Shown here in pieces: positions 1 to 35,021 of a DNA stretch of 64,000 nt. The stretch comes from an uncultured Actinomycetota bacterium (lineage in GTDB: Bacteria > Actinomycetota > Acidimicrobiia > Acidimicrobiales > Bog-793). The stretch is taken from NCBI GenBank assembly GCA_963735115.1, contig CAVTJR010000003.1:1096641-1160640 (forward strand). Direction: 5' to 3'. Numbering within the stretch: the stretch's first letter is position 1; each line of letters begins with the position of its first letter. The position numbers and the translations under genes were made by a program. Under the pieces are notes generated by a model. The model searched no databases, was not told the DNA's origin, and was given only the letters and a program-made list of their open reading frames with translations.

Positions 1-27
1 GACCGAACCGCGCCCGTCTTCGCTCCC

Positions 28-273
28 ATGACCGAGCAAGACGCCGTTGTCGACATCCTCGCGCGAGAGACGGCCCTGAGCGCCTCGGATTTGTCGAGCG
101 AGTGGTCACTCATCGATCTCGGCGTGACCTCGTTCGTGATCGTGCGCGTCCTCGTCGCCTTCGAGGACCATTTCGAGACGGAATTCTCCGTCGAGCAGAT
201 GGAGGAAGTCGTGAGCACTCCGGTGGCTCAGCTGCCGGAGTTCGTCCGACGAGCGCTCGCAGTCGGGAGCTGA
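28..273 (+). CDS. stand-alone carrier protein (PCP/ACP-like)
   Basis: 81-aa ORF with a carrier-protein helix pattern. Candidate phosphopantetheine serine in LIDLGVTSF. Stop lies 3 nt before the adenylase start. Confidence 0.7.
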   Translation: MTEQDAVVDILARETALSASDLSSEWSLIDLGVTSFVIVRVLVAFEDHFETEFSVEQMEEVVSTPVAQLPEFVRRALAVGS

Positions 274-276
274 GCA

Positions 277-1821
277 GTGGACGTCCTCGAGCTGATCCTG
301 GATCGTGCGCGCACCAGCCCCGATCGTCCCGCCGCAAAGGACCGTTCGAGCGATATCACCTACGGCGAGCTGGAGCAGGCGGTCGCCGAGCTCGCGAGCG
401 GACTCGGCGAACAGGGTGTCCGGGAAGGCGATCGCGTGTGTCTCCACCTCCCGAATTCAGTCGAGTTCCTGGTGGCGGCGCTCGCCTGTATGTGGGTGGG
501 GGCGATCTTCGTGCCGCTGGCGACGACGGATCCGGCGCCCCGCCGGCGCGCCGTCGTCGAGAACTGCGAGCCGGCGCTCGTGCTCGCCGACGCCGAGATG
601 CTGTCGGTTGCAGAGCGCGATGGCGAGCGGCTCTACGAGGGACGCCTGGTCCTTCCCGTAACTGCCGTCAACCGACCTGCCGGTGCGGCGCCGGCCCGGG
701 CGGACGACGACGACCGGCCGGCGTACTGCATCTATACGTCGGGCACGACGGCTTTGCCGAAGGGGGTGCTCATCGGGCATCGCTCTTTTCTCTGCGCGGT
801 TCTCGCCGCCGCCGAGCTGCTCGAGCTCGACGAGACGACTCGTTCCCTCTGCGTCTCGTCGTTTCACTTCGACGGTTCCTACGGCACCTTGTTCCCCACA
901 CCCGTCGCTGGGGGGTCGCTCGTGATCCCGCGACGCGAGGCCTTGATGCTCCCGCGGCTCTTCTTCAGGACGGTGGCGGACGAGCAGGTGACTCATACGA
1001 GCATGTCCCCGACTTACCTCCGGCTCCTGCTGCCCAGCCGCCACCTGCCCGAGCTGGCCCGGACGCCGCTTCGTACCATGGCCTTCGGCGGGGACGCCCT
1101 CTTCGCCGACGATCTCGAGCGGCTCTGGGCTTCGGTGCCCAGCCTTCGCGTCTTCAACCGCTACGGGCCGACCGAGACCACGATCGCCGTGACCACGCAC
1201 GAGCTGACGCCGGAGATTGTGGCTCTCGGGGATCCGCTGCCCATCGGTCGGCCACACGCAGGCGTCACCTTCTGGCTCGTCGACGACGAGGGCAAGATCA
1301 TCGACCGCCCGGGCGACGTGGGCGAGCTCTACATCGGCGGCAATCATCTCATGATCGGGTACTGGCGCGAACCGGCACTCATGAGCGAGGTGATGCGCAC
1401 CGACGTCGTGCCGGGAGAGACGGTCTACCGGACCCGCGACCTGGTGTTTCGCGATGACTCAGGTAGCTATCACTACGTCGACAGGTCGGATCGAGTGGTG
1501 AAGCGCAGCGGCATGCGCATCTCCCTTGTCGAGATCACCGCCTCCTTGACGAGCCTGAGCAGCATCTCGAAGGCGCACTGCGTGGCCTACGACAAAGACG
1601 GTGGAGTCGGCATCGCGGCTTTTGTCGTGCCGATCGTCGCCATCACCGGCCCGGAGCTTCGCCATGCAGCCCGCGACCGCCTGCCGGCGACGATGCTGCC
1701 GGACGTCATCGAAGTCGTGGCCGACTTCCCCCTCACCGGCTCCAACAAGGTGGACGAGCGGGCGATGCTGCAAGCCGCCGGGTTGCAGGAGTTGGGCAAG
1801 GAGGGACTCCGGTCCGGCTGA
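277..1821 (+). CDS. stand-alone NRPS-type adenylation enzyme (ANL superfamily)
   Basis: Core motifs: A3 YTSGTTALPKGV, A4 FHFDGS, A5 NRYGPTETT, A7 YRTRDL, A8 YVDRSDRVVKRSGMRISLVEI, A10 PLTGSNKVD. Confidence 0.9.
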   Translation: MDVLELILDRARTSPDRPAAKDRSSDITYGELEQAVAELASGLGEQGVREGDRVCLHLPNSVEFLVAALACMWVGAIFVPLATTDPAPRRRAVVENCEPALVLADAEMLSVAERDGERLYEGRLVLPVTAVNRPAGAAPARADDDDRPAYCIYTSGTTALPKGVLIGHRSFLCAVLAAAELLELDETTRSLCVSSFHFDGSYGTLFPTPVAGGSLVIPRREALMLPRLFFRTVADEQVTHTSMSPTYLRLLLPSRHLPELARTPLRTMAFGGDALFADDLERLWASVPSLRVFNRYGPTETTIAVTTHELTPEIVALGDPLPIGRPHAGVTFWLVDDEGKIIDRPGDVGELYIGGNHLMIGYWREPALMSEVMRTDVVPGETVYRTRDLVFRDDSGSYHYVDRSDRVVKRSGMRISLVEITASLTSLSSISKAHCVAYDKDGGVGIAAFVVPIVAITGPELRHAARDRLPATMLPDVIEVVADFPLTGSNKVDERAMLQAAGLQELGKEGLRSG

Positions 1822-1870
1822 GGGCGCTGTCTGCGGCCCGTTGTCGCGGGTCGCGAAACCGCCGGCCGCA

Positions 1871-3682
1871 TCAGCGGAGAAAGTGCCGGCTGGCGTAGTC
1901 GACGATCAAGTCGGACACCTCGTCTCGATCCCTCGGATGGCGTAGGGCGTGATCGAGGGCGGAGATCATCTCGAGCTGCAGCTCTCCTGCGTTGGCGGAT
2001 CGCAGGCGAGGGTGGTCTGCCGCGTGCCGGAAGGGTCGTATCTCCTCAGAGCCGCAGATCAACAGCACGTTCGATCCAGCTAACACGAGGTCCGCCAGGT
2101 GCTCGCTCGGGCCGCTTTTCGGGCCTCCTGGGCGGGTTCCCAAACGCCACACAAGTGTGCGGTAGGGCCGGCCGAGTCGATCGAGGGCCGAGCGGATGCT
2201 TCGCCGCGCCCTCACCGTGGCCATCGGGTAGCGGGTGCCGATCCACCGGACGAGCGGAACCTGCTCCTCGAGCCATCGAATCGATGTCACTTTGTTCGTC
2301 GCCGTTGCGAGATGCGGTTCCGGGAGGAAGAACTTGCGTCGCGGATCGGCCGCACCGCCGTGCTCCATCTCCGGCGCCGGGAACGACACAGCCGGGTTCA
2401 GCGCGCAGACGCCCCGCGGCGACAGGATGGCCGCGGCCTCGAGTACGTGGTAGCCGCTCGAGCACAAGCCGAAGAGCACGACGTTCGAGGGTGCCTCTGG
2501 CGAGAGGGCGCGGGCGACGTCAACGACATCCTCGATCGCCGAGTAGGGGTAGACCCGCGGGGGCGTCGAGCCCCTCGGAGGGCTGTCGCCGACGCCGCTG
2601 AGATCCATGCGAACGCACCGGAGCCCCGCGGTGGCAAGGCGACGGCTGAGGTCGACCCAGAGTCGTCCGGGGCCGATGCGATGCTCGTTGGCGACGTTGA
2701 CGAACAGACACACCGGGCCGGTTGCGCCCTCCTTCGGCTCGGTCGATATCGAGAACAGCCCGAAGGGCCCGAGACGCACAGCACGCTCGACGACCGGCGT
2801 CGGCAGTCGGTCGCCGCTCTCGGACGCAGCCGCCCGATTGTGGCGCAAGGTGACGGCCACCTCGGCAGGCCGCGGCAGGGTGACCGAATGGCGGTCCTTT
2901 GGCATGACGTCGTCGATCCAGTCGACGATGGTTGCCAAGGCGCCGGCCGGCACGACCTGGAGCGGCGTTGGCATATCGAGGAGGTCGTCTTGGCCTGCCA
3001 CCTTGCGGTGCTCCACGTTCGGCAGGACGAGGCGGTCCACGAGGGTGCGCTCGGCCGGGTGGTCGACTCGAGTGAGCAGGAGCACCCGCTCCGCCAGAGT
3101 CGCCGTCGTCTCGTCGAATTCGAGCAGCGAGAGCTCACGCAGGATCTCTGGCGGGAGGAGGAAACCCGGAATGTCGTCTGGGGAGATGTTCGATTTACCC
3201 GCAACCTGGATGCGCAGGCTCAGCATGCGTTGCTCTCGAACGAACGACCGTCCGCTCGCGCACGGGTCCCACATGACGAGGGCTTCGAATGGTTCGAGGG
3301 CGCTGGTGAGTCCGGCAAGGAGGGCGCCGACGCGCATGCCCACGAGAGCGATGCGGGTCGCTCCCAACCCTCGCACGAAGTCAACGGCGTGGCGCACGTC
3401 ATCGAGCAACCCGATCGTGGCGTCCTGCTGATCGGTCCGGTCGAACGAGTCACCCGTCGAGCGGTAGTCGAAGCGGAGAGCGAGCAAGCCGGCGTCTGCG
3501 AGACTCCCGGCCAGGCGAGCGAATGTGGAGTATGCGCTCGTGTGCTCCCTGCCAAGCGGCGGGCAGAGAACGACGGCGCCGCGAACCTCGGCGCTGTTGG
3601 TATTGATGAGCCCGAACAGCGGTGATTCCTCCGGGCCGAACCAGGCCGACAGCGGCTGGTCAGGCGGGCGCTCGGACTTCAT
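1871..3682 (-). CDS. fused double alpha/beta-hydrolase-fold protein (N-half elbow GMRVG, C-half elbow GLCSS)
   Basis: 603 aa in two homologous halves (..LRFDYRSTGDS.. and ..VRMDLSGVGDS..). Nucleophile-elbow positions read directly from the translation. Lies 12 nt downstream of the ATP-grasp gene. Confidence 0.7.
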   Translation of the reverse strand: MKSERPPDQPLSAWFGPEESPLFGLINTNSAEVRGAVVLCPPLGREHTSAYSTFARLAGSLADAGLLALRFDYRSTGDSFDRTDQQDATIGLLDDVRHAVDFVRGLGATRIALVGMRVGALLAGLTSALEPFEALVMWDPCASGRSFVREQRMLSLRIQVAGKSNISPDDIPGFLLPPEILRELSLLEFDETTATLAERVLLLTRVDHPAERTLVDRLVLPNVEHRKVAGQDDLLDMPTPLQVVPAGALATIVDWIDDVMPKDRHSVTLPRPAEVAVTLRHNRAAASESGDRLPTPVVERAVRLGPFGLFSISTEPKEGATGPVCLFVNVANEHRIGPGRLWVDLSRRLATAGLRCVRMDLSGVGDSPPRGSTPPRVYPYSAIEDVVDVARALSPEAPSNVVLFGLCSSGYHVLEAAAILSPRGVCALNPAVSFPAPEMEHGGAADPRRKFFLPEPHLATATNKVTSIRWLEEQVPLVRWIGTRYPMATVRARRSIRSALDRLGRPYRTLVWRLGTRPGGPKSGPSEHLADLVLAGSNVLLICGSEEIRPFRHAADHPRLRSANAGELQLEMISALDHALRHPRDRDEVSDLIVDYASRHFLR

Positions 3683-3694
3683 ATTCGCCTGACG

Positions 3695-4972
3695 CTACTC
3701 ATAGACGACCGAGACCTCCTCACGCAGGCGTCGATCGAGAGCCCGAAGCTCCGCGACGTCGTCCACGGTGCCCTCGGCGGCAAAGACGAAGTCTCGATAG
3801 CCCTTGCGCCAATCGACCGACTGGCCAGGGCCGCGGTTGAGCAGCAGGTGCTCCACGCCCGGAAACGTCGCAGCCTCGTCGAATCCCTGCAGGCTGAGGA
3901 CACGGTGAGCGGACATGGGGGCCTGGATCACGGATCGAAACACGACTCGATCCATCTGCAGCAGCCTCTCGTGGGGAAGCTGCTCACCGAGTGCCAGTCG
4001 ACACCCCACATCGTAGAGGTCGAGCTTGCTCAGACGCCCGATCATCTCCGGTATTCCGCCGCCTGGTCGTCCGTTCACCTCGATGAGGCGAGGGCCGCTC
4101 GGCGCCAGCTTGATCTCCGTGTGCAGGCAGCCGCTTTCTATCTCGAGTGCCCTGGCTGCATCGACCGCCAGTTGGAGAACGGCGGCTCCATCCTCGTCGG
4201 AGAGCTCTGCCGGCATGAAATTGCCGGTCTCGCGAAACGGCTCGACGAAGCGGAAACGCCCCGTCATGGCGACGTTGCTCACGCGCCCGCCGCTCACGTA
4301 GCTCTCGACCGAGACGACTGGGGCGATCTGCTCGTCTCGTGACGGAGCTGCCGGTATGAACTCCTCCACCAGCATGGCTTCGCCGATCCCGTCTCGAGAG
4401 AGCTGCGACAGCGCCTCGAGGAGATGAGGGAACGACGGCACCGAGACGACGTTTTCGCTGCCCGTTCCGTGCCGTGGCTTGAGCACCGCCGGGAAGGAGA
4501 TGCGGCTCTCGATGTCGGCCAGGGCAGCGCCGTCGCCCGCCGGGGGAACCTCGGCGTAGCGAGGGACGGCAACGCCGCCTTGGTGGAGGGCGCGCCGCTG
4601 CACGAATTTGTCGACGAGCCGCTCCGCCACCTTCGGGGTATGAAAGGGCAGCTCGAGCTCCGCGGCGATCTCCGCCAGCCTGAGCATGCCGGCGTCCTGG
4701 AAGGTCACGATGCCGTCGGGTCTGTGGCGTCTGATGGCGGTGGCTGCCTGCGAAGTAGGCAGGCCTTCCAGGTGAACGACGTCCCCGAGCTTGCGCAGCA
4801 TCGCCGCGTGCACGGCGGCGACGTGGCGGTGCACCGGAGGGGTGGAATCGACCAGCCAGAGCAGCTCGTACCGCCCGGCCGCGAGGGGTGCGAGCGCCAT
4901 GGGGGACAGCTCCAACGGACTCGTCAGCACGGCCATGAGCGGCCGGCTGCGCTGCGGGCGAGCGGGCATCAT
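3695..4972 (-). CDS. ATP-grasp enzyme, L-amino-acid-ligase-like
   Basis: ATP-grasp hallmarks LVEEFI and HTEIKLAPSGPRLIEVNGRPGGG. ORF is open to 5203, but the first ~77 codons have poor third-position GC. Start placed at ATGATG 4972/4969; 4936 is an alternative. Confidence 0.75.
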   Translation of the reverse strand: MMPARPQRSRPLMAVLTSPLELSPMALAPLAAGRYELLWLVDSTPPVHRHVAAVHAAMLRKLGDVVHLEGLPTSQAATAIRRHRPDGIVTFQDAGMLRLAEIAAELELPFHTPKVAERLVDKFVQRRALHQGGVAVPRYAEVPPAGDGAALADIESRISFPAVLKPRHGTGSENVVSVPSFPHLLEALSQLSRDGIGEAMLVEEFIPAAPSRDEQIAPVVSVESYVSGGRVSNVAMTGRFRFVEPFRETGNFMPAELSDEDGAAVLQLAVDAARALEIESGCLHTEIKLAPSGPRLIEVNGRPGGGIPEMIGRLSKLDLYDVGCRLALGEQLPHERLLQMDRVVFRSVIQAPMSAHRVLSLQGFDEAATFPGVEHLLLNRGPGQSVDWRKGYRDFVFAAEGTVDDVAELRALDRRLREEVSVVYE

Positions 4973-5165
4973 CGCAGGTCCTGGCCGAAGGTTGCGGCCG
5001 TATCCGCCGACACGCCCGTCCGCCCGGGAGTCAGAGTCGCCTCGCCTGGGTGGCAAGGCAGCACCCTCAGGAGCGAGTCCAGCGGGCCGTGAAGTCACCC
5101 TCACCTCGGTGGCGCTTCCAGCACTCGGGCGGAGCCGGCTCCCACCCCCCGACTCACTTCGCGAG

Positions 5166-6941
5166 TCATCCGAGCAGCTCCTCGACGCAGCGTTGAGCGT
5201 CAAGGAAGACGCGTAGTCTGCTCTTCGGCGAGGGGAGATAGTGCGTGAAGTACCGCACGCCCTCCGTCAGCGCTCCCAGCAGGGAAAGATGCTGCTGCAC
5301 GCGCCCGTCTCGGTCGATGGGGTGGAAGTCCCTCGTGAGGGCCACGCTGCCGACGGGGGTGTCACCGTACTTGAACTGCTGCAGCCGTCCCTGCTGATAC
5401 AGGTTCGTCAGCAGCGGCGATGAGGAGCGATGCAGGGTCGGGTCCTCAAGATACCCCTGTACCAGCACGTCCACCGGTGCGGAGAAGGGCGTGTCGAGCT
5501 CCCTCGAACGGACCGTCCGACCGGAGTGTGACGTCGTCAGTCGAGGAGCAGGGCCGAAGGGGGCTTTCACGACCCCTGCGTCCATCAGCGCCAGCAGCTG
5601 CTGGGAGCGGATCGCCGGAGGTCCCGCCACGAGGCGGCTCACCTTGGAGCGGATGTTCGACTGGAAGTCGAGGTACGACTCGAGCGAGAGCCCGCCGAAC
5701 TCGATGACGGTTCGCATGGCGTCGCGCTGGAAGCGGAGCACCTCAGAAGCGGCCTTGACGGCGCTCGCCGGACCCTTCAGCGCCTCGTCCAGGTCCGTTT
5801 CGACCATGGCGTACACGCGGTCCTGGTAGTCCGTCGCCGACACGAAGCTGTCCTCGGGAGCGAAGAAATTTCGGCTGGCGTCGAACGAGCCGTAGCGCGC
5901 CGCGTAAGGCGCCACGACCGACTCGAAGTCGTTGATCGAGGACTGCTCCAGCCGGGCACGCACCTCTTTGGCGGCGTCCGGGCCTGCGGCCAGAGCAGCC
6001 GAGTGCAGGTAGTACCGGGCCTGCATCTCTGCGAAGATGAGGGGAAGCATCGTCGTCCGGAGATCGACGCGGCCGGCATCGGCCCGAATGGCGGCGACGG
6101 CCTCCTCGGTGCAGATGACCGAGGCATAGTCGTCGGTCTCGTCCAGAGCTTCGACGGCCTTGGCACAGTATGGGAATCCGCTTCGTGAGAACACGTAGAT
6201 GCGCGGCTCACGTCCGCTCGCCCGGTATCGCAAGCGATCGCCGCGCGGCACGAAGGAGCCGCCGTTGCCGAGCGTGAGCGCCGTGATGGCGTCAGTGGCA
6301 ACAAGGCCCATACCGACGATGCCGACAGAGGCGGTCGAGGGGATGGCGTCGACGTAGGGCGTGACGGGATACGGCCTCACCAGGTGCTCGGGATGATCGA
6401 GGTTGCCCGTGTGACCGGTCGTGAGGATGACGTGGTTGACGGCAAGGACCTCGCCGGTGTTGAGATACACGTGCTCGAGTCCGTCCGGTTGGCTGACGAT
6501 GTCGACGGCGAGCGCTCGGTGCGGGACGATCTCGAGCGGCCACGGCGCGTCCTCCACGAGCGTTTCGAAGAACCATTGCAGGTAAGCCCCGAGGACGCGC
6601 CGAGGCAGGTAGTCGTGGGGCGTGACCTCGCGTCCCGAGCGCGAGACGCGGCAACTGTCGCCGTTCCAGCGGTAGCCGACCTGCTTCGTCCATTCGTACA
6701 GGCCGACGCCGTAGCGGGGGGAGGCTCCCTCGTCGTCCCACGGGTAGAGCGAGAGCTGGCCGCACGGCGTGTTCAGGAGGAGGTACTCGGGCTCGTCCAA
6801 GGCGTACACGCCGGGTCCGGCCGTGCCGACCTCTACGACATGGACTCGAGTCGGGCACCGCTCAGTGCGAACAGCGTCCGCCAGACGCTCCAGCACGCAC
6901 AGCCCCCAGGCGCCGGCTCCGACGAGCGCGACCTCATTCAT
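5166..6941 (-). CDS. FAD/NAD(P)-binding oxidoreductase (YdhS/NAD_binding_9-like)
   Basis: Start placed at MNEVALVGAGAWGLCVLERL (GxGxxG dinucleotide fold). ORF is open to 7052, but that extension covers a structured intergenic hairpin. Confidence 0.7.
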   Translation of the reverse strand: MNEVALVGAGAWGLCVLERLADAVRTERCPTRVHVVEVGTAGPGVYALDEPEYLLLNTPCGQLSLYPWDDEGASPRYGVGLYEWTKQVGYRWNGDSCRVSRSGREVTPHDYLPRRVLGAYLQWFFETLVEDAPWPLEIVPHRALAVDIVSQPDGLEHVYLNTGEVLAVNHVILTTGHTGNLDHPEHLVRPYPVTPYVDAIPSTASVGIVGMGLVATDAITALTLGNGGSFVPRGDRLRYRASGREPRIYVFSRSGFPYCAKAVEALDETDDYASVICTEEAVAAIRADAGRVDLRTTMLPLIFAEMQARYYLHSAALAAGPDAAKEVRARLEQSSINDFESVVAPYAARYGSFDASRNFFAPEDSFVSATDYQDRVYAMVETDLDEALKGPASAVKAASEVLRFQRDAMRTVIEFGGLSLESYLDFQSNIRSKVSRLVAGPPAIRSQQLLALMDAGVVKAPFGPAPRLTTSHSGRTVRSRELDTPFSAPVDVLVQGYLEDPTLHRSSSPLLTNLYQQGRLQQFKYGDTPVGSVALTRDFHPIDRDGRVQQHLSLLGALTEGVRYFTHYLPSPKSRLRVFLDAQRCVEELLG

Positions 6942-6997
6942 GGTGCGCAATGGCCTGACCGCTCGTGTGCTCCCCGCCGACCCACTCTTATACGCTA

Positions 6998-7062
6998 CCG
7001 CCACGGGGCTCTGCCCATTTTCAAGTGGGCAGCGTGGCGGTGTTTCAGGCATCGCAGATGCC
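6998..7062. other. interrupted 15-bp hairpin (6998-7040) plus 6-bp hairpin (7048-7062) in the divergent intergenic region
   Basis: CCGCCACG/CGTGGCGG outer stem and CTGCCCA/TGGGCAG inner stem with a 5-nt bulge. Second hairpin is GGCATC-gca-GATGCC. Read directly from the sequence. Confidence 0.5.
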
Positions 7063-7132
7063 AGGGAGACTGCTCGTGAGCCACGCGAGGGGTCGGATCG
7101 AGGGTTGAATCAACAGGGTCACGCGGCTCTCT

Positions 7133-8245
7133 ATGCTGGTCACGGGTCCCACTCGTTCAGTGGAGGTGTTACATCCCAGTCTTTATCGACTCGGCGGAGC
7201 CCAGGTCGTCCCAAGCGAACGGCACGGGGGGAGCGCGCGTGGTCGCGGCGGCGGTCAGCCGGCGCTCGAGATCGCGATCGTCAACAACATGCCTGACGCC
7301 GCCTTTGCTGACACTGAAGATCAGTTCACGACCTTGCTCAACGAAGCCGCCGGTCATCTCGAGCTGCGCGTCGGGCTCTATAGCCTGCCCGGGCTACGGC
7401 GCAACGAGGGCACCGCGAGTTACATCGCGGCGAACTATCGAAGCATCGAGCAGCTGTTCGACCGGCGAGTCGACGCCGCCATCGTGACGGGGACCGAGCC
7501 GCTCGCCGGGCGCCTGCCGGACGAGCCCTATTGGGCTGCTTTGACGGAGCTGATCAGTTGGGCAGAGGTATCGACCACCTCTACCGTCTTGTCCTGCTTG
7601 GCAGCTCACGCTGCGGTTCTGCTCTTCGACGGTATCGAGCGGGAGCGACTTCCGCAGAAGTGCTCCGGTGTCTTCGCTCATGAGTCGCTCACGTCGCACC
7701 CTCTCGTCGAGGGCCTGCGTGGACCTGTATTCGTGCCCCACTCGCGCCTCAACGACGTCCCGGGTCACCACCTGTCGGACGGCTATGCAAGCTTGCTCGG
7801 ATCACCCGAGATCAGCTGGACCGTGTTGGCACGGGAGAGCGGCAATTGCCTGTTCATGTTCGTGCAGGGCCACCCCGAGTACTGGACGACGAGCCTGTTG
7901 CGGGAGTACAAGCGCGATTTACAGCGCTACCTCCGAGGCGAGCGTGACTCGTCGCCCCCCGTCCCGCTCCATTACCTCGACGAAGAAGGAGAGCGCCTGC
8001 TCACTCGATTCGCCACCGAGGCACGGGCGCGTCCCTCGTCGGCGGACCCGATGGCGGGCTTCCCTTTCGATGAGGTCAAGGAACGCGTGGTAAATACGTG
8101 GCGGCCCCACGGGGCGCGCTTGTACAAGAACTGGATCCAGGAGATCCTGCGGCGGAGGCAGGACGGCCCCCCAGGCAACGGCGAGGCGCCGGCGCCGGAT
8201 CGGGCCGTCGACGAGCAAGGAACGAGGTCTGTTGGTGCGGGATGA
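7133..8245 (+). CDS. metA: MetA-family homoserine O-acyltransferase
   Basis: IAIVNNMPD (cf. ILNLMPKK), IVTGTEPL, catalytic-Cys region VLSCLAAHAA, HSRLND, GHPEYW. N-terminal ~45 aa and exact start are uncertain. Confidence 0.8.
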   Translation: MLVTGPTRSVEVLHPSLYRLGGAQVVPSERHGGSARGRGGGQPALEIAIVNNMPDAAFADTEDQFTTLLNEAAGHLELRVGLYSLPGLRRNEGTASYIAANYRSIEQLFDRRVDAAIVTGTEPLAGRLPDEPYWAALTELISWAEVSTTSTVLSCLAAHAAVLLFDGIERERLPQKCSGVFAHESLTSHPLVEGLRGPVFVPHSRLNDVPGHHLSDGYASLLGSPEISWTVLARESGNCLFMFVQGHPEYWTTSLLREYKRDLQRYLRGERDSSPPVPLHYLDEEGERLLTRFATEARARPSSADPMAGFPFDEVKERVVNTWRPHGARLYKNWIQEILRRRQDGPPGNGEAPAPDRAVDEQGTRSVGAG

Positions 8246-9515
8246 GACGATTGCTCTCCACGGCGGGTACACACCTGATTCGACGAAGGCCGTGGCGGTG
8301 CCTATCTATCAGACCGTCGCCCATGAGTTCGACGACGCCGATCATGCGGCAGCCGTGTTCGACATGGACATCCCGGGGTTCCACTACAACCGGCTGAACA
8401 ACCCAACCAACCAGGTTCTGGAGCATCGCCTTGCAGCCCTTGAACTCGGCGTCGGCGCCCTCACGCTCAGCTCGGGCACAGCGGCCGTGCTGTACTCGTT
8501 GCAGAATCTCGCCGGCCTCGGTGACAACATCGTCTCCGCCCCGCAGTTGTACGGAACGACCTACACCCTGTTCGTGCACATCCTGCCTCAGCAGGGTCTC
8601 GAGGTTCGCTTGGCGGCGGACGACACCCCAGCCGCCATGGAAGCCCTCATCGACGACCGCACGAAGGCGATCTTCTGCGAGAGCATCGGCAACCCCGCCG
8701 GCAACGTCGTCGATCTCGAGGCCGTAGCGGCGCTCGCCCACTTCCACGGCATACCGCTCATCGTCGACAACACGGTGGCCACGCCGATGATGATCAAGCC
8801 CGTCGAGCACGGCGCCGACATCGTCGTGCACTCGCTGACGAAGTTCGTCGGCGGCCACGGCACGACGCTGGCGGGAGGCATCGTCGACAGCGGCAAGTTC
8901 CCGTGGGCCGACCACCCGGACAGGTTCCCCATGTTCTCCCGACCGGAACCCTCCTTCCACGGGGTCGTATACCCAGAGCGCTTCGGTGACGCCGCCTATA
9001 TCGTGCGCTGCAGAACGGTGGGTCTGCGAAACGCCGGGGCGACACTGTCGCCGTTCAGCGCCTTTTTGGTATTGCAGGGTCTCGAGACCATGTCGGTCCG
9101 ACTCGACCGCCACGAGGTGAACGCCCGAGCTGTTGCCGCCTACCTCGCCGAGGATCGGCGCGTCTCCTGGGTGGACTTCGCCGGTTTCCCCGATCACCCC
9201 TATCACGAGCTTTCTGAGCGCTATCTGAAGGGGCGGTGCTCGTCGCTGTTCACCTTCGGTGTCGTCGGTGGCTATGACGCCGGCTTGCGGTTCTTCAACT
9301 CGGTGAAGCTCTTCAAGCGACTCGTCAACCTGGGGGACGCCAAGTCGCTCGTGAGCCATCCGGCCTCGACCACCCACCGACAGCTGACAGCCGAGGACCT
9401 GAAGGTCGTAGGCGTCACGCCGGACATGATCCGACTGTCGGTTGGGATCGAGCACATCGACGACATCATCGAAGACATCGACCAAGCGCTGAGTGCCGCC
9501 TGCGGCGCCGAGTAA
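8232..9515 (+). CDS. metY: O-acetylhomoserine sulfhydrylase / aminocarboxypropyltransferase (PLP, Cys/Met-metabolism family)
   Basis: 427 aa with PLP-lysine motif HSLTKFVGGHGT. N-terminus TIALHGGY..PIYQT. Overlaps the metA stop by 14 nt. Confidence 0.9.
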   Translation: MVRDETIALHGGYTPDSTKAVAVPIYQTVAHEFDDADHAAAVFDMDIPGFHYNRLNNPTNQVLEHRLAALELGVGALTLSSGTAAVLYSLQNLAGLGDNIVSAPQLYGTTYTLFVHILPQQGLEVRLAADDTPAAMEALIDDRTKAIFCESIGNPAGNVVDLEAVAALAHFHGIPLIVDNTVATPMMIKPVEHGADIVVHSLTKFVGGHGTTLAGGIVDSGKFPWADHPDRFPMFSRPEPSFHGVVYPERFGDAAYIVRCRTVGLRNAGATLSPFSAFLVLQGLETMSVRLDRHEVNARAVAAYLAEDRRVSWVDFAGFPDHPYHELSERYLKGRCSSLFTFGVVGGYDAGLRFFNSVKLFKRLVNLGDAKSLVSHPASTTHRQLTAEDLKVVGVTPDMIRLSVGIEHIDDIIEDIDQALSAACGAE

Positions 9516-9559
9516 CATCTGGCGGTGTTCGGACATTGCTGCAGTCAAAGGAGAGTTCG

Positions 9560-9724
9560 TTGCACCATGCCATCGAGTGCATCGGCGACGATCCTCGGAC
9601 GCGGTCGGTGGTTCTGCGGTTGATCGGAGGCGCCTCAGCACTCACTGAGCCGCTCCACTTGGGGGTCCGGTTCGCCGCCCGCCTTGACGACGCCGGCGCT
9701 ACGGCGGACCTGGCGGGATCATGA
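9560..9724 (+). CDS. possible 54-codon coupling ORF or crotonase-like remnant
   Basis: AAGGAG 6 nt upstream of TTG 9560. Stop TGA overlaps the ATG of the next carrier-protein gene (ATGA). Third-position GC is high. No recognisable full domain. Confidence 0.25.
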   Translation: MHHAIECIGDDPRTRSVVLRLIGGASALTEPLHLGVRFAARLDDAGATADLAGS

Positions 9725-10014
9725 CCTTGGGAACGGAGCCATCGATGACCGACGAGATTCGCCGGGTGGTGGCCCAGCACGGTCGCCTCTCGGTCCCGAT
9801 GTCGCAAGTGGCGGACGACGACGACCTCTACTTCGCCGGCATGACCTCACACGCGAGCGTCAGCATGCTGATCGCCCTGGAGGAAGCCTTCGGACTGGAG
9901 TTCCCAGAGGAAATGCTGCGCCAGAGCACGTTTCAGTCGGTCAATTCGATCGCGGCAGCGCTCGACGTTCTGATCGAGGACAAAAAGGCCGCTGAGCTTG
10001 GCCCACGAACCTGA
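9721..10014 (+). CDS. stand-alone acyl/aminoacyl carrier protein
   Basis: 97 aa with DLYFAGMTSHASVSMLIALEEAFGLEF (Ppant-serine context). Stop overlaps the next gene. Confidence 0.75.
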   Translation: MTLGTEPSMTDEIRRVVAQHGRLSVPMSQVADDDDLYFAGMTSHASVSMLIALEEAFGLEFPEEMLRQSTFQSVNSIAAALDVLIEDKKAAELGPRT

Positions 10015-10915
10015 GGAGGATTTTCGCTCGGGGCTGATGACCGCCGGCCTGCTCATCGCCACCGAGGTCGATGGGATCTACCTCCGGTCCGGGAACTTCG
10101 AGAGCGTGGCACGCGCCATCGATGTCCTCGTGAGCGCGGCCGGATCGGATCAGAACGCTGAGGTCTTGCATCTGCCGGCAGTCATGCCGCGTAGCGTCCT
10201 CGAGCAGTCCGCCTACATCCGGGCGTTCCCGGACCTCGTCGGCTCGGTCAACACATTCGAGGGTAATGACGCCCTGCACATCGAGATCCTGCGCCGCCTC
10301 GAACGCGGCGAGGACTGGGCAGAGCTCTTCGGCCGCTCCGACGTGGTGCTCTGTTCGGCGGCTTGTCACCTGGTCTACCCGACGTGTCGTGGCCGGTTGC
10401 CCGAGGGTGGTCGACGCTTCGAGGTCTTCGGTCAGTGCTTCCGGCACGAGCCGAGCCTCGATCCGGCGCGGATGCAGGCCTTTCGCATGCACGAATTCGT
10501 CTACGTGGGCGACGCCGAGGGCGCCGTGGCCCATCGGGATGCCTGGCTCGAGCGGGCCGCCCAGCTGCTCGGCGGGCTCGGGCTTCCCGTCACGGCGGTG
10601 CTGGCGAGTGACCCCTTCTTCGGCCGGGCGGGCAAGCTGCTCTCGGCGAATCAACGGGCGGAAGCCTTGAAGCACGAGGTCGTGACCTCGGTGCAGCCGG
10701 GAGAGGGGCCGGTCGCCGTCGCGTCGTCCAACTGCCATCTCGACCACTTCGGCCGTGCTTTCGGCATCGAGAGCGCGGACGGAACCGTCGCCCATAGCGC
10801 CTGTGTCGGCTTTGGGACCGAGCGCATCGTGCTGGCGCTGCTGGCAGCGCACGGGCTCGACCCGGTGTGCTGGCCGTCCAACGTGCGCGATCAGCTGTGG
10901 CCGTCGAGGACTTGA
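9998..10915 (+). CDS. class-II aaRS-like amino acid:[carrier-protein] ligase (truncated SerRS-type catalytic core)
   Basis: 305 aa with motif-2-like CFRHEPS and motif-3-like VGFGTERIVLALL. No tRNA-binding domain. Cys/Glu/Cys candidates for the Zn site. Adjacent to a carrier protein. Alternative start ATG 10037. Confidence 0.75.
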   Translation: MAHEPEEDFRSGLMTAGLLIATEVDGIYLRSGNFESVARAIDVLVSAAGSDQNAEVLHLPAVMPRSVLEQSAYIRAFPDLVGSVNTFEGNDALHIEILRRLERGEDWAELFGRSDVVLCSAACHLVYPTCRGRLPEGGRRFEVFGQCFRHEPSLDPARMQAFRMHEFVYVGDAEGAVAHRDAWLERAAQLLGGLGLPVTAVLASDPFFGRAGKLLSANQRAEALKHEVVTSVQPGEGPVAVASSNCHLDHFGRAFGIESADGTVAHSACVGFGTERIVLALLAAHGLDPVCWPSNVRDQLWPSRT

Positions 10916-10933
10916 GGGCGGCGACCGCCCCGC

Positions 10934-13732
10934 TCAGCCGAGCGCCTTCGCCAGGGCCGTCACGATCGGCGTTCCCAGGCCAGTAGCCATGTCGTAATGC
11001 TTCGTGGCTGGGTAGAGGCCTCCGTTCGTCGTCGTGTAGTCGTTGTTGCCGACCTTGACGTCGTTGACGACGGCCTTGCCTTCGGCCACCAGCTTGTAGA
11101 GGGCAGGGTTCAAGAAGCCCAGCTTGTGGACCTTGCCCTTGTAGGCGTCGAGGAGGGCGGTCAATGCCGCCCAGAGGGGCGTGGCGGCACTCGTGCCGCC
11201 GACGACCGTCCACTTGCCGCCGAAGACGATGACGTAGCCATGGGACGGGTCGGCGCTGGCGGAGACGTCGGGGAGCTCTCGACAGAGCGTTCTGCCCGTG
11301 GCGCCGCAGGGGACCCCCGAACTGAGCGAGCTCACGACGCCGGGGCCGCGCTGGTACTTGGGCATCGTCCACCAGGAAGAGATGCCGCCCGTGCCGGCGC
11401 CCTCGGCGAACAGGGGCTCGTCCCAGACCGACTGCGTGGGCGCAGGGCCGAGCTTGGTGAGATCGGTGCCGCCCACGCCGGTCACGAACGGCTGCTCGGA
11501 CGGATCCTCCACGCTCAAGAAGAGCGGCATCCAGACGAAGCCGCCGGCTGCATCGGCAACCCAGGCATAGTCCAAGAGCGGGTCCGTGGCGACGGCGTAA
11601 GGGTCGGTGATACCCGTAATGAGCCTCGTCACCTTGTTCGTCCCGCCGGAGATGACCGCTACGCCGGCTCCGCTGCCGTCGGAGCCTTCAGCTGTGACCA
11701 GGACACCGCTCCCGTTCGGATCGACGGCCAGCGACGTGGGGATGACCAACCCACTTAGCGTCGCTGTCGCCACGAAGTCGCCGGTGCTCGCCTCCAGCAC
11801 CGTCACGGTGTCGCTCTCGGCGTTGCCGATGTAGAGCTTGTTCGAGGAGGCGTTGACGGCGAGCCCGTACGGCTCCTCGCCGACCGATACCTCGGCCAGC
11901 GTCAGCGAGGTGGGGCAGCCGCTCGTGGTGGTGGCGTCACATGCCGCGCCGCTGAACTCGCCAACTTCGTCGTCGCCGAAGTCGGTGAGGAACACCTGGT
12001 TGGTGGAAGCGTCCACCGCCACGTCTGCCGGCTCGTCGCCGCCGTATGCACCAACGATGGTGAGCGCCGACTCGTCGATGACGCCGATGTCGTCAATGCC
12101 GGCAAGGGCCACGTAGGCGGTGCCGGTGGCGCTGTCGACGGCGATACCGATGGGCTCGCTACCGGGGTCGTTGATGACCGTCATGGGGGTGGCGCTGCAG
12201 CCGGACTGGTTGGCGCTGTCGCACGTCGCCCCGTCGATCTCGGCGACGATGCCAAGGGCGTCTTCCGAGACCCAGAGTTGGTTCGTGGTCGGATCCACGG
12301 CGAGGCCCTCTGGCTCGGTCGTCGATCCGAGAGCGATCGTCCCGACGGTTTCGAGCGTGGCCTCGTTGGCGACGGTGATGTCCCCGGTGATCGAATTGGC
12401 GAAGTAAACGGTCTGGGTCGCCGGGTCCACGGCGACGGCGTCAGGCCCAGGAGGCTGGCTGATCTCGGCCGGCGAACCGTTCGCCATGCAGCCTTCCGAG
12501 CCCACGTCACCGTCGGCCACGAAGGTGGACTGCCCCTGGATGGCGGCCTCCTTGAAGATGGAGTTCTCCGCCTTGATGACTGACTCGGGGACGAAGACGT
12601 CACAGCCGAAGGGGGCGGTCGACCAGCTCGAGGAGATGACCTGTGCCTTGTCCTGAGTGACGATCTTGTCGTAGCCATCTGTCGGGCCCGTACCGCTCCC
12701 GATCGTCTCGTAGACCCGTACAGATGCCTTGGGGGCGAGGCCGATGACGGTTTCGATGTCGAGGGCCGCCTCAGGAGAGAAGTCGGCGTCCTTGCTTCCG
12801 CCGTCGACGGACACGTTCGTGAGCGGGACATGGGTGTGGTAGCAGGACTGGAACTTCGCGATGTCGCTCTTGGAGTACGTCTGCTCCTCGAACAGGGCGA
12901 TGGTGACGCCTTTGCCGAGATCGCCCTTGGCGAAGACCCCGTCGAAGGAGTACGCCTGCGCGAGCTGCGTCTCGGTCCAGCCGGAGAACTCCTTGGCCAC
13001 CGCCTTGGCTGTCGCGCAGGCGATGGGGCCGCTCGTGGGGACGACGGAGGGAACGGCCGTCAGTCGTGGGTGACGGTGGGCGGCGATCGGACCGGGCGCA
13101 CGTGAGCTGACGGTGTCGAGGCCGATGATCCCCTGCACGTCTCGGGCGATGGCGCTCGGCAGCGTGGGGGCGTCGGTGTTCACGATGGCCGTGGCCGGCA
13201 CGGTGCCGGCCGGCTGGCGGTAGAGGCGCAGTGAGACGTGCAGCGCTCTTTCCACGAGCCCGACGTTGGCGCTCACCGGGATGATCAGGTGGTCAGGGGT
13301 GATGGCGCCAGGCCGCAGGCCGGCCTGGCGAAGCACGGCCGTGACCGCCGAGATGGTGGCAGGCGTAGGCCCGAAGACGGAGGCGAATTGACCGCGGGCA
13401 AGGAAGTGGCCATAGAGGGGGTTGCCCGGGGTGGAGACGGCCGTGGCGAACGAGGTCATGGCCGCCGGGTTGCGCGGCTCGAGCACGACGTCGATGTGCA
13501 GTGGGGTAGCCGCCCGGGCGGCACCGAGCGGGTGGTCGGCCAGCGGGACGGCGGCGGCCTTGCCCACAGGGGCCAGGTACGACGTGAGCACGGCATGCAG
13601 GCGACCGGCGGACGCCGCTGCCTGGTCGCCGGCTCCAGCCGTGGCGAGAGCGACCAAAGCGGAGCACACGAGCAACGTCCCACCTAGGCGGAACCGAAAG
13701 TTCCGACGGCTCGTCCGGCGAGTGACCATCAT
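10934..13732 (-). CDS. secreted sedolisin (S53) peptidase with pro-kumamolisin-type propeptide and an internal 6-7-blade YVTN-like beta-propeller
   Basis: Signal peptide and activation domain. Catalytic blocks are AALDIETVIGLAPKASVRVYE, ISSSWS, ADGDVGSEGC, then about 330 aa of 40-50-aa repeats (DPxT..LYV.., ..P.GLAV). The core resumes at PFVTGVGGT and VVGGTSAATPLWAAL. Confidence 0.85.
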   Translation of the reverse strand: MMVTRRTSRRNFRFRLGGTLLVCSALVALATAGAGDQAAASAGRLHAVLTSYLAPVGKAAAVPLADHPLGAARAATPLHIDVVLEPRNPAAMTSFATAVSTPGNPLYGHFLARGQFASVFGPTPATISAVTAVLRQAGLRPGAITPDHLIIPVSANVGLVERALHVSLRLYRQPAGTVPATAIVNTDAPTLPSAIARDVQGIIGLDTVSSRAPGPIAAHRHPRLTAVPSVVPTSGPIACATAKAVAKEFSGWTETQLAQAYSFDGVFAKGDLGKGVTIALFEEQTYSKSDIAKFQSCYHTHVPLTNVSVDGGSKDADFSPEAALDIETVIGLAPKASVRVYETIGSGTGPTDGYDKIVTQDKAQVISSSWSTAPFGCDVFVPESVIKAENSIFKEAAIQGQSTFVADGDVGSEGCMANGSPAEISQPPGPDAVAVDPATQTVYFANSITGDITVANEATLETVGTIALGSTTEPEGLAVDPTTNQLWVSEDALGIVAEIDGATCDSANQSGCSATPMTVINDPGSEPIGIAVDSATGTAYVALAGIDDIGVIDESALTIVGAYGGDEPADVAVDASTNQVFLTDFGDDEVGEFSGAACDATTTSGCPTSLTLAEVSVGEEPYGLAVNASSNKLYIGNAESDTVTVLEASTGDFVATATLSGLVIPTSLAVDPNGSGVLVTAEGSDGSGAGVAVISGGTNKVTRLITGITDPYAVATDPLLDYAWVADAAGGFVWMPLFLSVEDPSEQPFVTGVGGTDLTKLGPAPTQSVWDEPLFAEGAGTGGISSWWTMPKYQRGPGVVSSLSSGVPCGATGRTLCRELPDVSASADPSHGYVIVFGGKWTVVGGTSAATPLWAALTALLDAYKGKVHKLGFLNPALYKLVAEGKAVVNDVKVGNNDYTTTNGGLYPATKHYDMATGLGTPIVTALAKALG

Positions 13733-13836
13733 GATTTTCCCCTCCTCGTCCGGGGTCCCCGCCCGGCGCCTCCGCTACCGTAGCCAACCCCGTTCGTCGC
13801 CGCAGGGGAACCGCCCGGTGGCGCCGCTCGGCCGGC

Positions 13837-13925
13837 TGCCTGCTCGCGATGATCCCCGGAGCGACAACGATTCCGGCCGAGTGCCTGCTCGGGACGATCC
13901 CCGGACGCGACAACGCCTCCGGCGA
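13837..13925. repeat. two imperfect ~45-bp direct repeats upstream of the S53 peptidase gene
   Basis: tgcctgctcgcgatgatccccggagcgacaacgattccggc versus tgcctgctcgggacgatccccggacgcgacaacgcctccggc. Each has CCGGA..TCCGG arms. Coordinates are approximate to a few nt. Confidence 0.55.
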
Positions 13926-14073
13926 AGGGGGGTGCCGGAGGCGGTCGCAACGCTTTGGAACAGGCTTCGTAAATTGTCGGCCGGCTGTCGGCTGGACTTG
14001 AGTCTTTGCCGAAAGTTTCTTCTCGCTTCCCACGCCGCCTGCGCCCGGCCGGTGGCGCCCGCTGCGGGCGCCG

Positions 14074-14235
14074 TCAGCCGGCGGCTTTGCGGGGACCGTG
14101 AGCCTGGTCGGGAGCTACCAACCAGGCGTACGCCTCGGCGAGGGTGAGGAGCGTCTCGGACGTCATGTTCCGCGAGGTGATCGCCTCCAGCATCCGCTCT
14201 CGCAGCGCGTCGACGATCTGATCTTGAGTGGGCAT
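14074..14235 (-). CDS. small hypothetical protein (53 aa)
   Basis: ATG 14235 preceded by AGGAGA at 6 nt. Helical-looking sequence MPTQDQIVDALRERMLEAI... No family recognised. Confidence 0.4.
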   Translation of the reverse strand: MPTQDQIVDALRERMLEAITSRNMTSETLLTLAEAYAWLVAPDQAHGPRKAAG

Positions 14236-14275
14236 CTCGTTCTCCTGTGGGCGGTACCGGTGCCCCCGTCCTAGC

Positions 14276-19200: not shown

Positions 19201-19470
19201 CGGAAGTGTGATGTCGAAGAGCTGACCGAAGTCCTTGTTGTTGACCTGCGCCGGTGAGATGGCGGCATGCGGATACCAGTTCGTGCCCAACTCGTCGGCA
19301 TCGGCACCCACCACCGAGGAGCCGGCGGCGGTAGACGGTTTCGCGGCGGAGCCGGCAGCCAACTGTGGAAGGACGGCGATCTGCAGAGCCGCCACGATCG
19401 ACAACACCAGACCAGCCCGACCTGCGCGCCAGCGGGCGGCGCCAGCACAGGCAGGGTCGACTGATCGCAT
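16207..19470 (-). CDS. large secreted protein: PQQ-like beta-propeller + Ig-like (choice-of-anchor-D-type) domains + C-terminal L-type (legume-like) lectin domain
   Basis: Start at ATG 19470 with GGAGGGA upstream, followed by a signal peptide. Propeller repeats (AQPIVANGILLVAT..AYGLNPRTGAVEWS). Three Ig-like modules. C-terminus YLQLTPA..AGAAFW..FTADM..GLTFALV..YLGFTAATG. Confidence 0.8.
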   Translation of the reverse strand: MRSVDPACAGAARWRAGRAGLVLSIVAALQIAVLPQLAAGSAAKPSTAAGSSVVGADADELGTNWYPHAAISPAQVNNKDFGQLFDITLPKVDGVAPGEIYAQPIVANGILLVATEDDNAYGLNPRTGAVEWSRNFGPAWQSSTINCGDLAPTVGITGTPVVDTATGVAYFTTDTATPDGGALWQMQAVHLATGTEMAKFPVAIEGAATNLLGDSFDPTFNPVYQMQRPGLALVNGEVYAAFGAHCDESTWYGWIAGVRSTGVLNDMWVDETTDSADGGGIWGPGGIVVDNSGNLYVATGNGGTPSPGPGLDVPEPAGLGECVIKLSTGGAHLQLTDYFCPSDAAALNTYDGDLGSGSPIGLPASFGTPSEPDLLVQVGKSGEVYLLNRNDLGGVDQGPPSDLDDVVSETGPRGGVWSHPAAWPGDGGYLYITTASAGSTAAASTGELDVYQRVVTDGQVSLNWVGTGPENPFGSSAPIVTSDRSQAGSAIVWEVVRTGTGNSAKLMALGAVPVAGNSTTPAASLPLLWEGSVGNSTKFNPPLAYQGRIYVANYDGQVLAFGPRKNAPPLTGANVEAADTVLGSSSETTATLSASGPVTVRSVSVSVSTAGASGAFRTPPLSKQLHLTAGKRISLPVKFVPEIVGGQEGTLTLTTNLGTVSVRLSGRGIPEGVPIAATPPSVSFGIQPIGGGPVVETVSFKNTSPSSFTVDSVGIESGSPAPFSLANGFAPPEILAAGASLSVPVDFTPPATSGDFVQTFSDHLVVTTSVGEATVPLEGQAAPPPQIAISSLKLNVGTVAIGQSGIVSFTVGNRGGTPLAINKSKPPVADGFSPVTSLPEGSEIAAHHALVETVRFSPERAGRASATWVINGDDGSGLQTVTFTGTGAREHRLPSPLRPGWHLSGRASRSHGYLQLTPASADAAGAAFWSEPIAPVGLRASFTADMTGGSGGSGLTFALVSGRSPPGRAGLDGPGLGLAGLPAVAVALQSSPSAQNPNRNSIGVVTSTAGGTALVWRQLIDSSSSLRRLPLQVTVTIAGGTVTVELDGFTLLATKLRLPKHVYLGFTAATGTYTDRHLVSGVQVSYP

Positions 19471-19664
19471 TCTCGAGTGTTCCCTCCGCGTGAGCCAGCC
19501 CTTGCGAATACTCGGCAACCGTAGCTGGAGGGTCAGCCCATCGCTCTTGTCCACCGCTGGTGCCCACGGCGCAACGACCGAGCGAGGGGAGAGGACGTGT
19601 CAACAAGCCGGGCCGAGCCCGCCTCTAGCCATGCCGGCTTCGCCTCCACCGATAGTCTCTCAGC

Positions 19665-20642: not shown

Positions 20643-20809
20643 GGTAACGGGGGCGATGGCGCTTGCCGGCGTCGGCGAGCCGGCGCGCCGTTGCCCTCTC
20701 GGGGATCCGGCCCCGGCGTGGGCGCCCGCTCCCTCCAGGTTGCTTTCAGCGGACGCGGCGCTGTACGCGGCATGATCGCGAGAGCGCAGCGCCGATCGGA
20801 GGAGATCGA

Positions 20810-22174: not shown

Positions 22175-22184
22175 GGGCCGTGTC

Positions 22185-23552: not shown

Positions 23553-23617
23553 CCCGACCGGTCGGGCCGAGGGGCGGCGGCACACTCGCGGATCACGACG
23601 ACAAGGAGCCAGGCACA

Positions 23618-34985: not shown

Positions 34986-35021
34986 ACGACACGCCTAGAT
35001 TGGCCGGGTGAACGACACGCC
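34971..35021 (+). repeat. perfect 25-nt tandem duplication (period 26) of the gcvT start region
   Basis: agattggccgggtgaacgacacgcc occurs at 34971-34995 and again at 34997-35021. Each copy carries the GTGA stop/start junction. Confidence 0.85.

Follow-up and report, generated by a model that had tools for sequence, protein, structure and literature searches.

A Class II Aminoacyl-tRNA Synthetase-Like Amino Acid Ligase and Its Carrier Protein as the Likely Loading Unit of a Conserved Actinobacterial Gene Cluster

The Locus

The DNA analyzed here is a 64-kb stretch, referred to as the window, from the metagenome-assembled genome (MAG) of an uncultured member of the Acidimicrobiales, with a GC fraction of about 0.68. 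Near its left end lies a gene pair encoding a small carrier protein (CP2) and an amino acid:[carrier protein] ligase (aa:CP ligase), an enzyme with the catalytic core of a class II aminoacyl-tRNA synthetase (aaRS). The pair is preceded by genes for a second carrier protein (CP1), an adenylation enzyme of the non-ribosomal peptide synthetase (NRPS) type, a tandem hydrolase, an ATP-grasp enzyme, a flavin monooxygenase (FMO), a homoserine O-acyltransferase of the HTS family and a MetY-like enzyme dependent on pyridoxal phosphate (PLP; Table 1). Both types of loading enzyme are thus present in the window, together with two carrier/hydrolase sets. Although structural and kinetic data on aa:CP ligases date back to 2010, their biological function is still described as unknown (PMC9437257), in agreement with a remark made in the original prediction on this DNA about the downstream fate of the aminoacylated carrier.

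Table 1. Genes of the candidate cluster and its right-hand neighbor, in window coordinates.
Feature	Position	Strand	Remarks
Carrier protein CP1	28..273	+	81 aa, GVTSF; PF00550 4.4e-08; 4 nt 5' of adenylation gene
Stand-alone NRPS-type adenylation enzyme	277..1821	+	PF00501 1.2e-73; TIGR01733 310 bits; candidate second loader
Tandem alpha/beta-hydrolase-fold protein	1871..3682	-	603 aa; Pfam and NCBIfam hydrolase families
ATP-grasp enzyme resembling L-amino-acid ligases	3695..4972	-	PF13535
Class-B flavin monooxygenase (FMO), CreE/FzmM fold	5166..6941	-	PF13454; divergent from HTS gene
Homoserine O-acyltransferase, HTS (MetA) family	7172..8245	+	PF04204 8.5e-60
O-acylhomoserine sulfhydrylase-like PLP enzyme (MetY-like)	8235..9515	+	PF01053 1.7e-120; 11-nt overlap with HTS gene
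Carrier protein CP2 (aminoacyl carrier)	9745..10014	+	89 aa, GMTSH; NF005480
Amino acid:[carrier protein] ligase	9998..10915	+	305 aa, TTG start; NF005479
S53 peptidase-like gene, convergent	10934..13732	-	not conserved with the other cluster genes

The Ligase and Its Cognate Carrier Protein

The ligase matches positions 17-316 of the 318-position NCBIfam profile NF005479 (amino acid--[acyl-carrier-protein] ligase) with 393 bits (cut-off 357), and the crystal structures of Bll0957 (PDB 4h2w/3mey) align to its residues 24-300 with E-values of 3e-67 and 1e-64. The models for methanogen-type seryl-tRNA synthetase (SerRS), NF002120 and TIGR00415, match its C-terminal core only and remain far below their cut-offs (56 versus 611 and 34 versus 490 bits, respectively). 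Likewise, residues 117-299 of the ligase align to residues 313-508 of the 527 residues of Methanopyrus kandleri SerRS (PDB 3w3s, E 1e-10). An AlphaFold (AF2) model built from 35 homologues (pLDDT 89.8, pTM 0.89) was compared to known structures with Foldseek. The glycine:carrier protein ligase structures 4h2s/3mey superimpose with a template modeling (TM) score of 0.91-0.95, a root-mean-square deviation of 1.6 Å and 38-39% identity. For methanogen SerRS the TM score is about 0.8 on the query, but only about 0.5 on the target (TMt), compared to a TMt of 0.94 for the ligase structures, so that the catalytic core alone is shared. With 305 amino acids versus 522-527 for SerRS, the protein has no tRNA-binding or anticodon domain. 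The NF005479 match, the core-only SerRS alignment and the structural comparison thus agree with the original prediction that only a class II aaRS core has been kept.

The residues expected of such a core are conserved. Across 83 aligned ligase homologues C123 (SAACH), R149 and E151 (both in CFRHE), C269 (HSAC) and R276 (GFGTER) are near-invariant. R149 and R276 are the predicted ATP-binding arginines of motif 2 and motif 3, in line with the motif-2-like CFRHEPS and the motif 3 that had been read from the translation before. The three predicted zinc ligands, C123, E151 and C269, coincide in the alignment with the Cys of AACY, the Glu of FRRE and the Cys of TGC in Bll0957, which bears out the proposed likeness in spacing to the zinc site of methanogen-type SerRS. 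Translation from the TTG codon at 9998 is supported by the homologues, since these align from query residue 7-9 onward, and the ligase start overlaps the stop codon of the carrier gene (10012-10014) by 17 nt, in support of a translational coupling of the two genes.

This overlap and the GMTSH motif of CP2 had been recognized correctly, whereas its start had been placed at the ATG at 9721 (97 aa). The ATG at 9745 (89 aa) is the more likely start because the NF005480 profile begins there, gene callers chose it and a GGAG lies 6 nt upstream. CP2 scores 98.7 bits against NF005480 (cut-off 72) and is similar to Atu2571, the 'aminoacyl carrier protein' of 4h2w chain C (E 4e-17); in this comparison, the GMTSH serine lines up with that of GLSSF. 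A carrier of the Atu2571 type has been co-crystallized with such a ligase. CP1 is not of the NF005480 type (only 24 bits), and its homologues occur only in the closest relatives of the window.

By homology and predicted fold, the ligase and CP2 are a new pair within the known Bll0957/Atu2573 family, and their identity is confirmed at that level. The described members are Bll0957 with carrier Bsr0959 from Bradyrhizobium japonicum, which uses glycine, and Atu2573 with Atu2571 from Agrobacterium (PDB 3mey, 3mf1, 4h2s, 4h2w, 2jq4). The window pair shares with them the fold, the Cys/Glu/Cys site, the motif 2 and motif 3 arginines and a dedicated carrier family, but is actinobacterial instead of alpha-proteobacterial and is set among FMO, ATP-grasp, HTS and MetY-like genes. 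While the alpha-proteobacterial homologues named in the original prediction are thus genuine relatives, the family is neither rare nor restricted to that class: more than 3,289 database proteins match the ligase with E <= 1e-10, and NCBI already names close relatives aa--[ACP] ligase. With methanogen-type SerRS (Methanosarcina barkeri 2cim, M. kandleri 3w3s) the ligase has the catalytic core and the positions of the zinc ligands in common, but it lacks the N-terminal tRNA-binding domain of these enzymes.

Two Genomic Contexts of the Ligase

Eighty genome loci containing ligase relatives and the locus L091 (81 loci in total, flanks of 10 kb) were scored for the neighbors seen in the window and for conserved neighbors found de novo. 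In 76 of these loci, a CP2 homologue is encoded no more than 10 kb from the ligase. Two mutually exclusive contexts emerge, as an acyl-CoA-dehydrogenase (ACAD)-like flavoprotein and the CreE-like FMO are never found together.

The type I context comprises 69 of the 81 loci and is found in Rhodococcus, Gordonia, Williamsia and some Acidimicrobiia. Here, the order is a phosphopantetheinyl transferase (PPTase) of the AcpS type, the carrier, an ACAD-like flavoprotein and the ligase, followed by DUF1839 (51 loci), a tandem hydrolase homologue or both. The ACAD gene thus stands between carrier and ligase in these 69 loci, whereas in the window the two genes overlap directly. For DUF1839, which has a papain-like fold, genomic context has led to the proposal that it acts on cell-wall glycans (PMC10318531). 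In this commonest arrangement (L044:8018-14318 and 68 others among L019-L089), a protein of about 900 amino acids with weak matches to Glyco_hydro_2_N2 and PKS_DH_N is also encoded. Type I loci are present in cultivable strains and would be easier to study than the MAG of the window.

The type II context comprises the window and about ten Acidimicrobiales loci (L011, L013-L018, L036, L091), to which L010, L012 and L087 probably also belong. In place of ACAD, these loci encode the PF13454 flavoprotein, HTS and the MetY-like enzyme, usually along with ATP-grasp genes, PPTase, tandem hydrolase and carrier. The MetY-like gene is linked to the FMO in nine genome loci. Both the gene order and the flanks vary: UDG and FrhB genes in L090, GT4, GFO_IDH and heparinase genes in L091, and GT4, Wzy_C and beta-helix genes to the left of the window. 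In a neighbor-joining tree the FMO-linked ligases fall into two separate clades. Ligase residues that separate the FMO context from the ACAD context were considered as a sign of a changed substrate and rejected, because they amount to four weak positions (58, 91, 142, 144), none of them at the zinc site.

The Flavoprotein Core With and Without a Ligase

A metagenome scan with the FMO yielded 63 loci, most with about 50-54% identity. ATP-grasp (36 loci), HTS (42) and MetY-like genes (37) accompany the FMO, and they do so together wherever the contig extends far enough. In 24 of the 63 loci there is an adenylation enzyme that shares 50-55% identity with that of the window, while an aa:CP ligase is found in a single one, L094, which derives from the window's own organism. 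The slot following the MetY-like gene is filled by carrier and ligase in the window and L091, by PPTase and ligase in L013-L018, and by an adenylation enzyme in L133, L111 and L113. A CP2-type carrier occurs even in loci of the adenylation type that lack a ligase (L099, L111, L133).

This is well illustrated by L133 (504-14336), in which the genes for FMO, ATP-grasp, HTS, MetY-like and adenylation enzyme are contiguous on one strand and no aa:CP ligase is present. The surrounding genes encode a CP2-type carrier (50% identity), an AcpS-type PPTase, a tandem hydrolase, a P450, a PhyH dioxygenase and a luciferase-like oxygenase. The same five core and adenylation genes are contiguous in L127 (10001-21558). 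Since L127 contains a PPE gene, contigs of the L133/L127 type are probably mycobacterial. Mycobacteria make O-acetylhomoserine by an enzyme of the MetX type, so that an HTS in these organisms would be an extra, dedicated copy. We know of no characterized product of this cluster type. The core of FMO, ATP-grasp, HTS and MetY-like enzyme is therefore conserved across Acidimicrobiales and probable mycobacteria.

The Partner Enzymes

The FMO aligns over its full length with the L-aspartate N-hydroxylase of Streptomyces (CreE/FzmM type; PDB 8CP2, E 1.4e-48). In the work on 8CP2, aspartate is bound by Arg13, Arg276, Asn413, Arg416 and Arg577, and the substitution N413E abolishes hydroxylation. We compared the substrate chamber in the window protein and 56 homologues (57 sequences), using the numbering of 8CP2. 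Asn62 and Arg409/412/416 are retained in all 57. By contrast, Arg13 is replaced by Trp in 55 (W12 in the window; two sequences are gapped), Arg266 by Lys in all 57 (K261), and Asn413 by Asp in 56 (D407) and by Glu in one. Arg276 is mostly a non-basic Gln, Glu or Asp, with Asp in the window. Because aspartate-binding residues are replaced and N413E inactivates the reference enzyme, the family is, as judged from these positions, a conserved sister clade of CreE/FzmM with a predicted substrate other than aspartate. An aspartate-nitrosuccinate pathway (CreE/FzmM with CreD lyase) was rejected in view of the R13→W, R276→D and N413→D changes and of the cluster's open reading frames (ORFs), among which Pfam and NCBIfam scans detected no CreD-type (nitrosuccinate) lyase. 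A literature search on PF13454/CreE/FzmM, swamped by 'Cree' papers, returned no CreE-like enzyme described with HTS/MetY.

The HTS protein scores 332 bits against the MetA equivalog NF003776, below the cut-off of 358. Its motifs LSCLAA and GHPEY contain what we take to be the catalytic Cys and the His-x-Glu of MetA. The MetY-like enzyme passes the TIGR01326 subfamily cut-off (575 versus 495 bits), but misses every equivalog cut-off (632 versus 790 for MetY), and its HSLTK is read here as the PLP-lysine motif. Housekeeping MetA and MetY equivalogs were rejected on these scores, and an Rfam scan of 1-14500 gave neither an S-adenosylmethionine (SAM) riboswitch nor a T-box, just a chance sub-threshold match to a small RNA. 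In fungi, Fub5/Fub7 (fusaric acid) and LolC (lolines) are examples of cluster-encoded pairs of homoserine O-acyltransferase and MetY/CGS-like enzymes, in which the PLP enzyme adds a 3-amino-3-carboxypropyl unit to a non-sulfur nucleophile. A role of this kind would suit the HTS and MetY-like pair of the window, although the fungal systems use acetyltransferases of the MetX type, unlike the HTS of the window.

The ATP-grasp enzyme has the L-amino acid ligases BL00235 (1e-12) and BacD as PDB matches. In the tandem hydrolase, the nucleophile elbow reads G-x-R117-x-G in the first half and G-x-C407-x-G in the second, and both R117 and C407 are invariant in 45 sequences. An invariant cysteine at the nucleophile position fits, as far as the alignment goes, an enzyme accepting an acyl group from a thioester. 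Of the 81 ligase loci, 43 have a homologue, which often follows the ligase directly or is coupled to the carrier gene; in L090, merely 2 nt separate the carrier gene from the hydrolase gene. A paralogue of 520 amino acids (37% identity) is encoded just left of the window (L007:8083-9645, minus strand), divergent from CP1 and the adenylation gene. The two halves distantly resemble exosortase-A-associated hydrolases 2 and 1 (TIGR03101, TIGR03100), both below cut-off. An exosortase-A-associated cassette of ACP, acyl-CoA ligase and hydrolases 1 and 2 was considered and rejected, as the resemblance is distant (TIGR03098 186 versus 592 bits, TIGR03100 67 versus 168, TIGR03101 73 versus 203).

For the adenylation enzyme, the top PDB match LgrA (E 6e-95) was considered as a sign of glycine specificity and discarded: its score adds up two separate A-domain matches (138 and 182 bits) and so has no bearing on specificity.

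Discussion

In this study, we propose that the region from about 28 to 10915 is a conserved actinobacterial biosynthetic cluster with the CP2-ligase pair as its loading unit, a reading which we regard as likely, its chemistry being deduced from the relatives of the single enzymes. Following the solved homologues, the ligase would bind ATP and a small amino acid, the alpha-amino group of which would be held by the zinc on Cys123/Glu151/Cys269, and form the aminoacyl-adenylate. The aminoacyl group would then be moved as a thioester onto the phosphopantetheine arm at the serine of GMTSH, with no charging of tRNA. HTS and the MetY-like enzyme would activate homoserine and join a 3-amino-3-carboxypropyl unit to a nucleophile, the FMO may N-oxygenate an amine other than aspartate, and the ATP-grasp enzyme is a candidate for amide bond formation. 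Finally, the tandem hydrolase with its Cys nucleophile is a candidate off-loading acyltransferase or thioesterase that would unload the carrier.

Similar to a stand-alone NRPS adenylation enzyme with its carrier (DltA/DltC-like, type II NRPS loading), the ligase is expected to accomplish the ATP-dependent formation of an aminoacyl-thioester on a phosphopantetheine arm, yet the folds are unrelated, the former belonging to the ANL superfamily and the latter to the class II aaRS. More tentatively, and as a possibility that we would not call probable, a single actinobacterial cluster family might load its carrier either by an NRPS adenylation enzyme or by a class II aaRS-like aa:CP ligase or, as in the window, by both. 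The core of that family would consist of the altered CreE-like N-hydroxylase, ATP-grasp, HTS and MetY-like enzymes, the Atu2571-type carrier, an AcpS-type PPTase and the Cys-nucleophile hydrolase. If true, this would be a natural non-orthologous exchange of ribosomal-type and non-ribosomal-type amino-acid activation in one pathway. The suggested interchangeability of an aaRS-like and an NRPS adenylation enzyme bears on the proposed evolutionary link between ribosomal and non-ribosomal peptide synthesis. It would also give the aa:CP ligases a first physiological role, namely to provide a carrier-bound amino acid for an N-oxygenated, homoserine-derived small molecule, and in the more common type I context the ACAD-like flavoenzyme would take the role of the FMO. 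Within its family the pair is an ordinary member; of interest are the conserved cluster and the apparent exchange of one loader type for the other. The locus and its relatives provide a short list of partner enzymes for in vitro reconstitution, and the apparent exchange makes the question of the role of aa:CP ligases, posed in 2010, experimentally approachable. The practical value is limited, since the DNA derives from the MAG of an uncultured organism and the sequence predicts neither the product nor the amino acid that is loaded.

Several observations weigh against the proposed loading role. The co-occurrence counts come from phylogenetically related genomes and are not independent events. 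Most FMO-centered loci contain the core without a ligase, which may therefore be accessory. The expectation that the neighborhood would be informative as to what these ligases are for is borne out with a qualification: FMO, ATP-grasp, HTS, MetY-like enzyme and tandem hydrolase do co-occur with the ligase in about ten Acidimicrobiales loci, but as the core is also found alone, the context constrains the role of the ligase and does not define it. All actinobacterial members have replacements beside the zinc ligands relative to Bll0957, which is specific for glycine (H124 instead of Tyr, A268 instead of Gly), so that glycine specificity cannot be assumed; in addition, the ligase has H150 and H165 where Bll0957 has Arg. 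Co-transcription of the pair with the preceding genes is made less certain by the 205-bp gap between the MetY-like and the carrier gene, and a promoter/terminator consensus scan of 6800-11200 gave nothing above shuffle expectation. Neither the 64-kb window nor the adjoining 10 kb upstream contains a PPTase, ACAD or DUF1839 gene, and the missing PPTase counts against the proposed role. A simple redundancy of the two loaders would be countered by the adenylation pocket, which we take to be D-G-G-S-A-G-R-I-A-K at the presumed GrsA positions. With Arg at 322 and mostly small residues elsewhere, it would not be Gly- or Ala-like and would hint at a larger acidic substrate, but this assignment is of low confidence and is not used as evidence here.

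Among the alternatives, a Dlt-like function fares best and is nevertheless unlikely. Here, the pair and the tandem hydrolases would aminoacylate a cell-envelope or extracellular polysaccharide, the amino acid being handed from the carrier to a glycan produced by the neighboring polysaccharide genes, and HTS, MetY-like enzyme and FMO would do no more than supply or modify the amino acid. This explanation overlaps with the loading role proposed above, and the two do not strictly exclude each other. It draws on polysaccharide-related neighbors: genes for a GT4 glycosyltransferase, Wzy_C and beta-helix/NosD proteins lie immediately left of the window, those for GT4, GFO_IDH and heparinase II/III adjoin the L091 module, 25 Rhodococcus loci share a conserved GT2 gene, and DUF1839, the usual downstream neighbor, is the family proposed from context for cell-wall glycans (PMC10318531). 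Furthermore, the adenylation enzyme resembles DltA, and the hydrolase halves have their likeness to exosortase-A-associated hydrolases 2 and 1. The scores for TIGR03098, TIGR03100 and TIGR03101 are far below the cut-offs, however, and there are no polysaccharide genes beside the module in L090 or in loci of the L133 type. No membrane-bound acyltransferase of the DltB/MBOAT type is seen in the cluster. The P450, PhyH and luciferase-like oxygenases of L133 are typical of small-molecule pathways, and this oxygenase-rich context favors a small-molecule product.

We consider it quite improbable that the pair is independent of its neighbors, with HTS and the MetY-like enzyme being ordinary methionine genes whose adjacency is inherited Acidimicrobiales synteny. 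The MetY-like protein does pass its subfamily cut-off and, similar to a housekeeping enzyme, is 65-86% identical across the compared module loci; the gap before the carrier gene and the 69 of 81 ligase loci without HTS or MetY nearby point in the same direction. Yet the combination of HTS, MetY-like, FMO and ATP-grasp genes recurs in apparently mycobacterial contigs as well as in Acidimicrobiales, with differing flanks and orders, and the ligase is tied to this core in two separate ligase clades. Both the HTS and the MetY-like protein remain below the equivalog cut-offs, and the 1-14500 region has no Rfam match to a SAM riboswitch or T-box that would mark methionine genes. A truncated or atypical SerRS still charging tRNA, for instance a resistance or stress paralogue, is scarcely credible: despite the weak homology to methanogen-type SerRS (NF002120 56 bits, 3w3s E 1e-10) and the name 'seryl-tRNA synthetase' given to many homologues by JGI auto-annotation, the score falls far short of the model cut-off of 611, the N-terminal tRNA-binding domain is absent (TMt about 0.5), there is no tRNA gene anywhere in the window, and the gene is coupled to a carrier of the type co-crystallized with such a ligase.

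Other Genes of the Window and Its Flank

Two genes to the right of the ligase encode large, probably secreted proteins. The convergent neighbor (10934-13732, minus strand) combines an S53 (pro-kumamolisin) peptidase with NHL/beta-propeller repeats, and the second (16207-19554, minus strand; 1,087-1,115 aa) carries Ig-like and L-type lectin domains. Elsewhere, these two adjoin the ligase only in the closest relative, L010. They are followed on the plus strand (19665-24382) by genes for a GAF-GGDEF protein, a glutamine-synthetase-like protein, an aldehyde dehydrogenase and a short-chain dehydrogenase/reductase (SDR), resembling genes of gamma-glutamyl-amine catabolism. Much of this set recurs downstream of the ligase in L091 (GAF-GGDEF, Gln-synt_C, Aldedh, adh_short and Peptidase_C26).

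Further to the right, an ORF of 830 amino acids (27740-30232, plus strand) joins a nucleotidyl transferase with hexapeptide repeats to a phosphoglucomutase/phosphomannomutase with all three PGM_PMM domains. Another single ORF of 821 amino acids (35008-37473, plus strand) contains GCV_T (residues 22-330) and GDC-P (374-741) and represents a gcvT-gcvPA fusion or else two genes that share a frame, the P-protein subunit 2 being encoded next to it (37470-38990). Polysaccharide genes are found on both sides. The 10 kb on the left (L007:1-9645) encode GT4, Wzy_C, a beta-helix/NosD protein and two proteins without Pfam matches, and a DUF4012 protein and a Wzy-like polymerase are encoded near the right end (59586-63611).

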